Assembly: GCA_015069425.1 (NCBI GenBank)
Contig: SVIP01000002.1
Span: 102,048-166,047, forward strand
Direction of reading: 5' to 3'
DNA length: 64,000 nt
Source: Clostridiales bacterium
GTDB lineage: Bacteria > Bacillota > Clostridia > Christensenellales > Borkfalkiaceae
The notes under the pieces were generated by a model that had not been told where the DNA came from, ran no database searches, and was given only the letters and a program-made list of their open reading frames with translations. The position numbers and the translations under genes are program-made. This document shows, piece after piece, positions 24,840 through 47,265 of the stretch (position 1 is its first letter; each line of letters starts with the position of its first letter).

Positions 24840-24957
24840 CTTTCTCCCCGTGCCAAAGTATTCTAGCACGGAAAGCAACTGATTTTTAGTAACATTTTAG
24901 TATTAAATTTGGATTTTTGTAGAAAGTGCTTCGTCTTACAAAGTCAGTATTATCGAT

Positions 24958-25074
24958 AAAGGATTAGATGCGAGCAGGTCAAGGCACGCGAGTATTTTGA
25001 TGGGGCGTGTACTTTTTGTACACAACCCGAGAAACACGGAGCGTAACACAGAGATGCGACGCATATAAACCTTT
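24958..25074 (+). repeat. Structured intergenic element, copy A
   Basis: Homologous to 39617-39714 and 39739-39855. Closing helix AAAGGATTAGATGCG / CGCATATAAACCTTT (13/15). Central hairpin GGGGCGTGTAC-TTTTT-GTACACAACCC. Strand is the orientation shared by all copies, not a proven transcript. Confidence 0.7.
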
Positions 25075-25075
25075 T

Positions 25076-26188
25076 TTACCCTTTCATAAAGGCGAGTATA
25101 ATATCATTTTGAACGTATAAGTACTCTTCTTTTATTTTTAAATTATCTCCGTTTTTTTCTAAAAACTGTGCTTTTTTGTTTAGTTCTACCTTGTATTCAT
25201 TATCAAAATCACTGTCAAAGGTCTTATTGTATTCTTTTATATTTAGTCCGTCTTCCGTACGAAGAGCGAGCATTATGAACTCAAACCTTGCATCAGTATC
25301 TTCAATTACATCAGAAGAAATTTCGGGAGATTTATTATAAATAACCGCATTCATATACTCGTCTATACTGAAAGTATTAGTAAATCTCCTATTTTCCATA
25401 AACGAACTTGCAGAAACACCAACGCCTATATACTCACCACGTTTCCAATAATTCATATTGTGGCGTGAGCGGTAACCGTCTAAGCAGAAATTAGATACTT
25501 CATAACGGTTAAAACCTTTTTCCTTTAAGTACGCCCTAATACCATCGTAAATATCCGCAACCTCGTCGTCGGAGAGCAATTCCCCGTTTAAGTAATCGGT
25601 ATAAATTGGCGTACCGACTTCTGGGGTTAGAGCGTAAACGGAAATGTGTTTTGCTCCACCTGCGATTGCCAAATCCGCCGTCTTTTTAACTTGTTCTAAA
25701 GTTTGGTTGCTTAATCCTATTAAAATATCCGCACTTATATTTTCACCTTTTAATAGATTACAACAATTTAAAAAGTCTTTTGCAGTGTGAATACGATTTA
25801 ATCTTTTAAGTTGGTCGTCATAACCTGTTTGTAGCCCTATAGAAAAGCGGTTTATTCCTACTGATTTATATTCTTTAATTTTTTCTTCGTCTACCGTACC
25901 GGGGTTAAGTTCAATAGTGATTTCCGCAGTTTCACGAACGTGAAAGCATTTTTTAATCTGCCTAATTGCACCCGCAATAAATTTTGCAGGAACAACTGAC
26001 GGAGTGCCACCACCAATATAAATGGTGTCTATAACTCTACCGGGATATTGCTTACTTCTTCCCTCAATTTCACGATAAAGGCAAGCAAAATAACTTTCCG
26101 CTTTGCCTATTTCTCTTGGGTATGACGCAAAATCACAGTATGTACATTTTTGTTTGCAAAAAGGCACGTGTAAATAAATTCCACTCAT
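25076..26188 (-). CDS. hemW: Radical SAM HemN-like protein (heme chaperone HemW type)
   Basis: Starts MSGIYLHVPFCKQKCTYCDF (CxxxCxxC radical SAM). The ORF-track extension to 26296 overlaps lepA. Conserved lepA-hemW synteny. Confidence 0.85.
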   Translation of the reverse strand: MSGIYLHVPFCKQKCTYCDFASYPREIGKAESYFACLYREIEGRSKQYPGRVIDTIYIGGGTPSVVPAKFIAGAIRQIKKCFHVRETAEITIELNPGTVDEEKIKEYKSVGINRFSIGLQTGYDDQLKRLNRIHTAKDFLNCCNLLKGENISADILIGLSNQTLEQVKKTADLAIAGGAKHISVYALTPEVGTPIYTDYLNGELLSDDEVADIYDGIRAYLKEKGFNRYEVSNFCLDGYRSRHNMNYWKRGEYIGVGVSASSFMENRRFTNTFSIDEYMNAVIYNKSPEISSDVIEDTDARFEFIMLALRTEDGLNIKEYNKTFDSDFDNEYKVELNKKAQFLEKNGDNLKIKEEYLYVQNDIILAFMKG

Positions 26189-39277: not shown

Positions 39278-39333
39278 ACTCCCCCCCTTTAGAGTAGTAT
39301 GCTTAATTTTCTATATTTAATACTCCATTATTT

Positions 39334-39585
39334 AATACGAGTATTTATCGTGAAACATATGTATCGAGTTAAGGCAATACGAGTATTTCTCGTGAAAAAT
39401 ACATATCAATCTAAAATAATACAAGTATTTCTCGTGAAACATACATATCAATCTAAAATAATACAAGTATTTCTCGTGAAACATACATATCAATCTAAAA
39501 TAATACAAGTATTTCTCGTGAAAAATACATATCAATCTAAAATAATACGAGTATTTCTCGTGCAATACTTGTATCCAACTAAAAA
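39334..39585. repeat. Tandem array, 6 x 42 bp, each unit with overlapping dyad symmetries
   Basis: Units start at 39334, 39376, 39418, 39460, 39502 and 39544. Consensus AATAC(G/A)AGTATTTCTCGTGAAA(A/C)ATACATATCAATCTAAAAT. The 39418 and 39460 units are identical. Confidence 0.9.
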
Positions 39586-39616
39586 ACAGAGATGCGCCTT
39601 AGCAAACCCTCGTGAA

Positions 39617-39714
39617 GAGGGATTAGAAACAAGCAGTTCAAGGCGCGTGAGTATTTCGACGGGACGTGTACTTCTTGTACACAACCCAAGAAACACGGAA
39701 CGCAACGCAGAGAT
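39617..39714 (+). repeat. Structured intergenic element, copy B (tandem partner, 3' arm decayed)
   Basis: About 95% identical to the core of copy C. Period of 121-122 nt marked by CAGAGAT at 39587, 39708 and 39830. Confidence 0.7.
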
Positions 39715-39738
39715 ATACTCTCAACAAACTCTAGTAAA

Positions 39739-39855
39739 GAGGGATTAGAAACGAGCAGTTCAAGGCGTGTAAGTATTTCGACGGGGCGTGTACTTTTTGT
39801 ACACAACCCAAGAAACACGGAACGCAACGCAGAGATATGAAGTTTATAATCCCTC
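39739..39855 (+). repeat. Structured intergenic element, copy C (closing helix includes the era stop codon)
   Basis: GAGGGATTAGAAAC (39739-39752) pairs with GTTTATAATCCCTC (39842-39855), 13/14. Core shared with copies A and B. Confidence 0.7.
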
Positions 39856-46790: not shown

Positions 46791-46819
46791 TTGACAATAT
46801 TATTTTATAAGAGTAAACT
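46791..46819 (+). promoter_or_regulatory. Sigma-A promoter of the long mgtE leader (TTGACA, 17 nt, TAAACT)
   Basis: Hexamers at 46791-46796 and 46814-46819. I found no other good promoter between here and the M-box. Confidence 0.55.
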
Positions 46820-46846: not shown

Positions 46847-46969
46847 TTTTTAAGTATTAGAAACGAGTTAGGCGAGGCTCGACAAGGCGTGGGGTGAGAT
46901 AGACCGTCTGGTCATCTAAATCCACGACGCAGTCAGTAAACGATGCATAACGAAGTTCATAACACATTA
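46847..46969 (+). repeat. Structured intergenic element, copy D1 (in mgtE leader)
   Basis: 127-nt tandem period with D2, about five substitutions between them. Core hairpin CGTGG...AGATAGACC-GTCT-GGTCATCT...CCACG. The 3' arm is degenerate. Confidence 0.7.
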
Positions 46970-46973
46970 TATA

Positions 46974-47099
46974 TTTTTAAGTGTTAGAAACGAGTTAGGC
47001 AAGGCTCGACAAGGCGTGGGGCGAGATAGACCGTCTGGTCATCTAAATCCACGACGCAGTCAGTAAACGATGCATAACGAAGTTTATAACACTTAAAAA
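46974..47099 (+). repeat. Structured intergenic element, copy D2 (in mgtE leader, intact closing helix)
   Basis: TTTTTAAGTGTTAGAAAC (46974-46991) pairs with GTTTATAACACTTAAAAA (47082-47099), 17/18. Shares TTAGAAACGAG, CAAGGCGTG, ACGCAG and GAAGTTTATAA blocks with copies B and C; copy A keeps diverged versions of these blocks (e.g. TTAGATGCGAG, CAAGGCACG, ACACAG). Confidence 0.7.
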
Positions 47100-47265
47100 A
47101 AGACCGGTAGGTAAGGCTACCTTAGGGATACGGACTGCTGCCGCAAAATAGTGGAGACACTATGAGATGGTTGAACAGACCACGTCGAAAACAAGGCGTG
47201 ATTTAATGCAGTTTCACTGCCCTACGGTGCTAAAGCCAGAATGGTTGCCCGAGATTTCGGTGTAG
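47100..47265 (+). promoter_or_regulatory. M-box (ykoK-type) Mg2+ riboswitch aptamer
   Basis: GGTAGGTAAGGCT, GCTGCTGCC, ATGGTTGAACAG, AAGGCGTGATTTAATGCAG and GTGCTAAAGCC blocks in canonical order. P1 is ACCG/CGGT. Lies directly upstream of mgtE. Confidence 0.85.

Follow-up and report, generated by a model that had tools for sequence, protein, structure and literature searches.

Background

The described systems closest in behaviour are two kinds of dispersed bacterial hairpin. REPINs and REP sequences, known with RAYT from Pseudomonas and Enterobacteria, are imperfect hairpins of about 100 nt that occur in tens to hundreds of copies, keep their hairpin through compensatory changes, leave no target-site duplication and rely on an enzyme that is a single gene elsewhere in the genome (Bertels & Rainey, PMC3116915; PMC3337134). 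Hairpin MITEs, such as ERIC/IRU, Correia/NEMIS, RUP and bcr1, are near-palindromic intergenic sequences of 100-160 bp that are often co-transcribed and sometimes overlap gene ends, that come in tandem and deleted variants, and that have direct target duplications (TA, TTTAT) and an identifiable parent IS or terminal inverted repeats (PMC3184786, PMC2229807).

The element described here is repeated within the window, by which we mean the whole 64-kb stretch of Clostridiales DNA that was analysed. An earlier note on this DNA had reported five copies of a structured intergenic element and had read them as a folded RNA or cruciform DNA under selection, in contrast to a passively decaying mobile repeat.

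The copies in the window

The window holds exactly five copies, all on the plus strand and at the positions reported earlier, as direct reading, a motif scan and a covariance model agree: the degenerate motif TTAGAWRCRAGNNNNNCRAGGC matches five times in 64 kb, each time on the plus strand, against a chance expectation of 0.1, and a model made from 124 relatives and scanned over both strands recovers the same five copies and none besides, scoring D2 at 103.6 bits, D1 at 71, C at 69, A at 67.6 (E 2e-14) and B at 19.8. A repeat search of the window separates two groups, A/B/C and D1/D2. The copies lie 7-15 kb apart amid housekeeping genes, a density of about one site per 20 kb. Every full copy folds as one long imperfect hairpin, or rod, with z of about -6 relative to dinucleotide shuffles; both strands fold far above shuffles, and copies A, C and D2 have the complementary closing helices that had been described.

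Copy A (24958..25074, plus strand), identified by motif, folding and model alike, consists of a 5' arm AAAGGA (24958-24963), a core TTAGATGC ... GCATATAA (24964-25068) and a 3' arm ACCTTT (25069-25074). Copy C (39739..39855, plus strand) has arms GAGGGA and TCCCTC around a core at 39745-39849. Copy B had been delimited as 39617-39714; it is a complete unit (39611..39728, plus strand), the middle one of a 122-nt tandem array, not truncated, whose last ~25 nt have diverged so that the closing helix is lost. A degraded 3' end, CAGAGATGCGCCTTAGCAAACCCTCGT, at about 39587..39613 on the plus strand probably belongs to a third unit of this array, judging from its likeness to the 3' ends of A and C. 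A spurious 149-aa ORF at 39299-39748 runs over element copies. Copies D1 (46847..46969) and D2 (46974..47099), both on the plus strand, belong to a subfamily with an apical hairpin GATAGACC and form a 127-nt tandem pair, in which the first unit, D1, has an imperfect closing helix and D2 has the arms TTTTTAAGTG and CACTTAAAAA.

The G-opposite-A mismatch inside TTAGA/TATAA, previously pointed out in three of these copies, is present throughout the family, and the exchange of an internal helix between ACGC:GCGT in A, GCGT:ACGC in B and GTGT:ACGC in C can be read directly in the sequence. The block ACGCAG, earlier listed as shared by all copies, does not extend to D1 and D2: their homologous block is AACGATG, and the ACGCAG that was matched there sits in the apical stem.

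Genes around the copies

Pfam assignments place copy A in the order lepA-hemW-[A]-spoIIGA-sigE-sigG (minus strand), copies C and B with the remnant in era-[C, B, remnant]-42-nt repeats-yqzL-recO (minus strand), and the D copies in bPH gene-[D1, D2]-M-box-mgtE (plus strand). Copy A ends at 25074, 1 nt from the stop codon TAA of hemW (radical SAM / HemN_C) at 25076..25078 on the minus strand (TTA on the plus strand), exactly as had been noted. The gene era ends within copy C: its stop codon is the TTA at 39844-39846, in the segment GTTTATAA, and the 3' arm of the copy encodes the last residues of Era. Copy D2 is placed between a promoter-like site and the M-box riboswitch of mgtE (47096..47256, plus strand), which begins within the D2 3' arm and is not part of the element; D1 and D2 are the exception in that their plus strand is sense to the flanking genes.

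Copy A had also been proposed to fill most of the interval in which the spoIIGA promoter must lie. It does take up 117 of the 197 nt between hemW and spoIIGA, but the other 79 nt hold a promoter-like TCTACA-18-TAAAAT (24894..24923, minus strand) outside copy A. The motif TTTCTACAAAAA upstream of spoIIGA is conserved at orthologous hemW-spoIIGA loci whether the element is present or absent; thus, the spoIIGA promoter region appears to lie outside copy A. A regulatory link to spoIIGA-sigE-sigG, as had been implied, is not supported, and the nearness to spoIIGA is incidental: the conserved feature is the position next to the stop codon of hemW, whose orthologues mostly lack the element. Copy A is a passenger behind hemW, as other copies are behind era and in the mgtE leader; it is no dedicated control element of spoIIGA-sigE-sigG, although it may affect local mRNA ends, and it should not be counted as part of the control region of these genes without experiment.

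A family found in Clostridia, Bacilli and a phage

The existence of further copies, on which the earlier note had made its reading depend, is plain: a scan of species-representative genomes for the 5' motif together with ACRCAG gave at least 119 loci, and the covariance model gave 141 copies in 100 loci, on one strand only at each locus. The hosts are dozens of human and ruminant gut MAGs assigned to Christensenellaceae, Clostridia or Clostridiales; Candidatus Scatosoma and Candidatus Coproplasma; five species of Bacilli, namely Oceanobacillus sojae (two strains), Bacillus timonensis, Alkalihalobacillus sp., Pseudalkalibacillus salsuginis and Tepidibacillus; and two MAGs labelled Fibrobacter. 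One IMG/VR contig also matched, with its copies inside a siphophage structural module.

The unit of the family is a core of ~110 nt (TTAGAWRC ... GYWTATAA) with locus-specific arms of ~10 bp, about 130 bases in total. On the 5' side the consensus runs from the ~10-nt arm through TTAGAAAC, AAG, CAAGA, C, AAGGC and TCG into variable helices, and on the 3' side it runs GATAGACC-loop-GGTCATC ... CAG (T)AACGCAG TATTG CGNNG TTTATAA into the complementary arm. The base of the rod is conserved and its apex variable, and the invariant or nearly invariant letters (TTAGA, C.AG, CAAGGC, AACGCAG, CG and TATAA) are mostly unpaired or mismatched. A closing helix that is locus-specific yet complementary, first described from three copies, is the rule across the family. 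The orthologous spot behind hemW in loci L136 and L121 holds a related second family.

An Rfam scan, which had been suggested earlier, yields no family for the element in Rfam 15 at gathering or permissive thresholds. The whole window gives only the M-box; permissive settings on the B/C region bring up nothing beyond chance matches of microRNA level (E>0.5); and the matches at the Bacilli loci are the host T-box, L21 leader and rRNA, with none to the element itself. A literature text search with core sequence strings returned only chance matches in unrelated papers, a keyword search (stop-codon-linked repeats of Clostridia or Firmicutes, bcr1, REPIN/RAYT) found no such family described, and copy C had no BLAST match among PLSDB plasmids or INPHARED phages. 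The family is new to Rfam 15 and to the literature searched. Being abundant in gut and rumen Clostridia and lacking an Rfam entry, it will be missed by annotation pipelines or called as spurious ORFs.

Covariation and the folding strand

In a model-based alignment of 141 sequences, which was fitted to the structure and so favours it, 82.6% of the cells in paired columns are standard pairs, compared with 61% when partners are shuffled and 35-44% when the structure is slid by one to three columns; 48 of the 52 pairs have changed on both sides, and the covariation score is 0.498 against 0.09-0.13 for slid structures. A separate MAFFT/RNAalifold analysis also gives outer helices with heavy double-sided change. 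Taken together, these analyses make the earlier claim of compensatory change sound: along the rod, such change is real and statistically strong.

In 121 of 129 copies the plus strand, in the orientation of the earlier note, forms the more stable fold of the two strands, the mean difference being 6.2 kcal/mol. On this strand the cells of paired columns that are not Watson-Crick comprise 624 G.A or A.G against 72 C.T, and 389 G.U against 158 A.C; the four innermost positions of the arms, where no sequence is conserved, give 57 G.U and 6 A.C. The folding strand has more C than G, a lagging-strand-like GC skew (leading-strand-template type), in 81 of 87 loci, a figure measured on 8-kb loci and confounded with gene strand in a way that does not let the two effects be cleanly separated; at loci with most coding on the other strand, and in the phage, the orientation still follows the adjacent gene. 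The mismatch asymmetry persists though mutation bias on this strand would act in the opposite direction, and the plus strand is therefore the one whose pairing is kept.

Position, polarity and stop codons

With the element in plus orientation, the right-hand neighbour lies on the opposite strand and converges on it in 109 of 115 cases, and the left-hand neighbour is usually the next gene in the same direction of transcription, 50-400 nt off. In ~95% of cases the strand that folds better runs antisense to the flanking genes; D1/D2 of the window and the B. timonensis locus L031 are exceptions in polarity. About 60% of copies have their TATAA end at or next to the stop codon of an opposite-strand gene. 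Of 129 full copies, 70 have the stop codon of the converging gene no more than 40 nt from the TATAA end, and in ~65 of these it falls within the arm or core or directly touches it, in three classes: the stop is the TAA of TTATAAAC (20 copies), stands in the arm at a fixed offset (~15 copies) or abuts the first base of the arm (~30 copies). The 70 stops near the TATAA end are 60 TAA, 8 TGA and 2 TAG; this 86% share of TAA compares with ~71% among stops of the window, although about half of the abutting TAA codons come from the element itself, which leaves a smaller excess among native stops. The phage obeys the same rule with two copies, one after a head-completion gene and one after a 525-aa ORF upstream of the Dit gene. 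On the other side, the distance to the next start codon ranges from 9 to 2000 nt, and the neighbours are unrelated genes. Some sites, for instance behind a putative AMP-forming acyl-CoA synthetase-like gene, are occupied in at least ten species; long-occupied sites with covarying arms fit host-level selection as well as they fit repeated targeting.

No conserved signal precedes the element, information content being ~0 beyond position -10 of the arms, and site scans found no consistent promoter or terminator with the copies. No terminator-like site overlaps any scanned copy and no U-tract follows the hairpin; the positions downstream are A-rich in plus orientation, and the organism's ordinary terminators look different. 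A reading as a dedicated RNA gene, one form of the folded RNA proposed earlier, finds no support in a family in which promoter and terminator are not conserved and the better-folding strand is antisense in ~95% of cases. Two cis-acting roles were considered and set aside. A regulatory leader or riboswitch would be expected to keep one position and orientation upstream of a single gene family, and the element does not, being tied to the stop codon of the upstream gene. An outward, gene-sense promoter built from the core (TTGNNN) and the arm (TAAAAT) could be drawn in 27 of 128 copies (21%) and in no copy of the window.

Origin of the arms

The ten positions beside the core are paired at 7.75 of 10, against 4.9 with shuffled partners, and 59 copies with atypical arms give 7.6 against 4.3; beyond position 12 arm pairing is at background level. 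Young subfamilies repeat the arms together with the core (for example TTTAAAGGN / NCCTTTAAA). In other copies the arm on the gene side consists of native coding sequence, to which the distal arm is complementary, as in L049, where a gene that we take from its C-terminal similarity to be rplK-like ends in GAA TAA and can be compared with three empty orthologues; in L003; in the gene ending ...SGKIQRNKL* (ten species), presumably an AMP-forming acyl-CoA synthetase-like gene by its C-terminal SGKI motif; and in a family ending ...FGDACLFL* (eight species). Within orthologous sets the distal arm follows the synonymous changes of the coding arm, and a TGA stop in the proximal arm is answered by TCA in the distal arm.

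These cases lead us to infer that the distal arm takes its sequence from the proximal flank. Quasi-palindrome correction by template switching is an established mutational route, and an intrastrand template switch at the long hairpin could be the source; alternatively, the distal arm might arise from a hairpin intermediate at insertion or be built stepwise by selection. Two other sources for the arms were rejected: the stems of a common pre-existing hairpin, since 120 loci show no excess of empty TTTAARG...CYTTAAA hairpins, and the stems of ordinary terminators, since the flanks are without U-tracts and the organism's terminators differ. In a single case, L123, the arm resembles a neighbouring terminator.

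Turnover and signs of mobility

Among about 30 hemW orthologues (51-83% identity), a copy recognised by the model stands behind hemW only in L121, L123 and L150, besides the window. A copy in L173 lies upstream of hemW in another gene context and is uninformative; the L128 site keeps a 32-nt remnant of both terminal segments; and the remaining sites have an intrinsic terminator or nothing, at least 12 being empty by inspection. The element often stands where empty hemW sites have their intrinsic terminator. MAG SIG399 carries four copies, spread over three contigs, that share 94-97% identity over core and arms, alongside others at 60-72%. It is common for copies to stand in tandem arrays, together with 5' halves, 3' fragments and nested copies. 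The mgtE locus differs between assemblies of the window species, with two copies, a single copy, a single copy minus its apical 37 nt, or a mini copy plus a full one; the era array is identical in 10 assemblies, and only the adjoining 42-nt repeat varies. In Bacilli, a T-box stem and an L21-leader hairpin each carry a copy exactly in the terminal loop, antisense in the former and sense in the latter, and a 23S-5S spacer contains one (sense) next to a 53-nt mini copy. The contrast that had been drawn with a mobile repeat is contradicted by these observations: the family shows presence and absence at orthologous sites, near-identical copies on different contigs, tandem arrays, partial copies, variation in copy number between strains, and copies in RNA loops and in a phage.

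The hallmarks by which the earlier note would have recognised an ordinary MITE, target-site duplications and a linked transposase, were not found. Direct repeats of at least 8 nt flank 15 of 127 copies, compared with 1 in a shuffled control, and a tandem copy or fragment next to the element accounts for nearly all the cases inspected. None of 120 loci holds an autonomous copy with 5' and 3' ends split by 0.3-3 kb, the ORFs of the 64-kb window include no transposase, integrase or reverse transcriptase, and no copies in inverted orientation surround a gene in the 8-kb loci examined.

Competing explanations

The reading that we favour, with a probability of roughly one half, is that the family is a non-autonomous, structure-dependent mobile repeat of the REPIN/MITE kind. 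It rests on the spread and covarying structure of the family, presence and absence at sites, young near-identical copies, tandem and deleted forms, copies in RNA loops and phage, the polarity, the strand bias of the fold, the lack of consistent promoters and terminators, and the complementary arms. The active form would be a rod of single-stranded DNA or, less likely, of RNA, on which an enzyme from another locus of the genome would act, and the sites behind stop codons and at hairpin tips would be those where insertion is targeted or tolerated. We infer that single-stranded DNA is the form that matters because the maintained strand is antisense to transcription in Clostridia, is promoterless, and lies in either orientation in the RNAs of Bacilli. 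Against mobility stand the lack of target-site duplications, of a transposase in the window and of a split-end copy in 120 loci, the sites occupied in ten or more species, the sharp stop-codon adjacency, and the lagging-strand-like skew of the folding strand, the reverse of what single-strand transposition of the IS200/IS605 type leads one to expect. A role for the host at mRNA 3' ends may exist alongside mobility.

Such a role might also be the main explanation, the rod acting in the 3' UTR of the upstream gene by protecting the mRNA from 3' exonucleases, as a processing site (for example for RNase III) or in the termination of translation or transcription at the stop codon; REP, ERIC and Correia elements have been reported to play roles of this sort. 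In its favour, the hairpin base lies on or against the stop of a co-directional gene in ~65 of 129 full copies and in the phage, sites are held in at least ten species with arms that covary with the coding arm, both strands fold far above shuffles, and the element often replaces the terminator of empty hemW sites. In the sense strand, however, the mismatches become C.U and A.C and the fold is 6 kcal/mol weaker in 121 of 129 copies, and the arm wobbles (57 G.U against 6 A.C) favour the antisense strand. The hairpin is also without a U-tract, most hemW orthologues manage without the element, copies in Bacilli occur in either orientation in other RNAs, and D1/D2 are opposite relative to their neighbours; we consider a primarily host-useful 3'-end RNA unlikely. 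An ordinary double-stranded MITE, that is, an internally deleted IS whose DDE transposase would read TTAKAAAC-N2-3-GCAAKAC ends and whose rod would be a by-product, is decidedly unlikely. The ends are indeed imperfect inverted repeats, one strand reading TTAGAAAC-AA-GCAAGAC and the other TTATAAAC-GGC-GCAATAC; copies are many, are missing from some orthologous sites and include tandem and deleted forms; and A/T-rich sites containing TAA are preferred (86% against ~71%, less for native stops). Yet the repeats that flank the copies are inverted, not direct, with no target-site duplication; covariation runs along the whole rod, apical helices included, for which an end-binding transposase would have no need; the mismatch types are strand-asymmetric; and neither a transposase in the window nor a split-end copy in 120 loci was found.

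Two further readings are less probable still. In integrons the folded bottom strand of the attC site is antisense to the cassette ORF, whose stop codon often lies in the inverse core site; integrons are not known from Firmicutes. An attC-like recombination site, folded from one DNA strand for a site-specific recombinase with the upstream gene as its cassette, would account for a folded strand antisense to the upstream ORF and of leading-strand-template composition, for the stop inside the terminal box TTATAAAC in 20 copies, and for two short helices with an unpaired spacer, conserved mismatches and a variable apex. It is nonetheless very improbable, since no gene-plus-site arrays occur, the neighbours being housekeeping genes spread over the chromosome; the window has no integrase; the gene-sense ends TTATAAAC ... 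GTTTCTAA misfit RYYYAAC / GTTRRRY, agreeing only in AAC and GTT; and pairing runs ~10 bp past the boxes, which a crossover within the box would not preserve. Least probable of all is a family of independently transcribed sRNAs, antisense or trans-acting and read from the plus strand. The conserved G.U and tandem G.A pairs on that strand are like those of functional RNA, covariation is strong, and the plus strand is co-transcribed with its host in the mgtE leader, the L21 leader and the rRNA spacer; but nothing is conserved upstream of the arms, no terminator follows, and about one copy per ~20 kb with near-identical cores and turnover between relatives is not what such a family would show.

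A bolder form of mobility is that the family is structure-dependent mobile DNA of a new kind, which moves as a single-stranded rod, homes to stop sites or hairpin tips and writes a ~10-bp inverted copy of its flank, whereas known transposases leave a direct duplication of the target. We regard this as quite unlikely; were it true, it would mean a hairpin-capped or snap-back insertion intermediate and an enzyme common to Clostridia, Bacilli and their phages. If the family is REPIN-like, REPIN biology would be extended to Firmicutes and phages. Stop-codon contact, an antisense folding strand and an inverted flank copy are explained by no known transposition chemistry, and they offer testable handles on hairpin DNA in compact genomes. 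The element overlaps the ends of the essential genes era and hemW and can thereby alter gene ends; it parts a promoter from a riboswitch at mgtE and occupies T-box and L21 leaders, and so can alter RNA structures.

Comparison with known systems

The family resembles REPINs in being a long, multicopy, covarying hairpin with conserved ends and a more variable middle, in lying between genes and often at gene 3' ends, and in its long-lived orthologous sites. It differs in having no GTAG or CGTC tag, its conserved ends being TTAGA and TATAA, in which no short REP palindromes are recognisable; in that no RAYT gene was identified, the analysis covering the 8-kb loci around the copies; in its strict polarity, stop-codon contact and ~10-bp inverted flank copies; and in its occurrence in Firmicutes, a phylum unmentioned in the REPIN/RAYT papers found by the literature search. 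With hairpin MITEs it shares size, near-palindromy, dispersal, occasional overlap with gene ends and tandem or deleted variants; in contrast to them, it shows no target duplication or parent element in 120 loci and the window, it covaries over the whole rod with strand asymmetry, and its flank duplication is inverted.

Like attC sites, the element is a single-strand-folded site behind an ORF and antisense to it, often with the stop in the first box, and its structure is conserved beyond its sequence; unlike them, it has no cassette arrays, no integrase in the window and no attC box consensus, its helix extends into the flanks, and its core sequence is highly conserved, which attC sequences are not. 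Intervening sequences (IVSs), which are limited to rRNA and excised by RNase III, provide a further parallel: in the T-box stem, the L21 leader and the rRNA spacer the element is likewise a self-contained hairpin at the tip of an existing helix, sporadic in occurrence, although the family lies mainly behind protein-coding genes, in antisense, with a core conserved across loci. The family fails the defining test of MITEs (target duplication), of REP/REPIN sequences (tag) and of attC sites (boxes, arrays), and yet it behaves like them.

Copies within leaders and an rRNA spacer

Two copies of the element (D1 and D2) stand between a promoter-like TTGACA-17-TAAACT (46791-46819) and the M-box aptamer of mgtE (47096-47256). 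Because strains of the window's species exist that carry a single copy or apically deleted copies at the mgtE locus (L212, L214, L215 and L220), the Mg2+ riboswitch leader of mgtE is polymorphic in length. In other genomes, the element is found as a 130-140-nt insertion in the terminal loop of a T-box leader (L014 6416-6764) and of the L21 leader of B. timonensis (L031 6152-6366); both leaders still meet the Rfam gathering score despite the insertion. In Alkalihalobacillus sp. BA299, the spacer between the 23S and 5S rRNA genes (L008 1070-1290, minus strand) contains a full copy together with a 53-nt mini copy that retains the basal helices only.

Sequences behind hemW and beside era

The position 3' of hemW is shared by a second, related element family, characterized by ATAGATGCGAGTCAGAC ... 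GGGCGCATAC ... CGCATATAA and by complementary arms of its own, which is present at about 860-1010 of L136 and about 4380-4500 of L121, with fragments in L020, L034, L074 and L116; a scan with model R1, the covariance model of the element built from 124 relatives, missed this family. At a further hemW orthologue (L128), the first 35 nt past the stop codon contain a 32-nt hairpin, AAAAAGATTATATGTTTCACTTCTAATTTTTT, that corresponds to the element's two terminal segments only and resembles a scar left by excision of the element or by a deletion inside it.

The element array next to era is separated from yqzL-recO by a 42-nt tandem repeat (39333-39562; 5.5 copies, 92% match). The number of units varies among assemblies of the same species, in which era and yqzL stand 441, 525 or 567 nt apart, and every unit contains an inverted repeat and, on each strand, promoter-like hexamers. 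A 149-aa open reading frame on the plus strand (39299-39748) that spans the 42-nt repeats and copy B, and that public assemblies likewise call as a gene, has no match in Pfam and is almost certainly spurious.

Copies in a phage

Two copies of the element are located on the minus strand of a siphophage structural module (L001 5290-5420 and 10110-10239) that encodes portal, capsid, head-completion and Dit proteins, and each copy overlaps the end of the gene before it, stop codon included. Carriage by this siphophage may offer a route for horizontal spread of the element.
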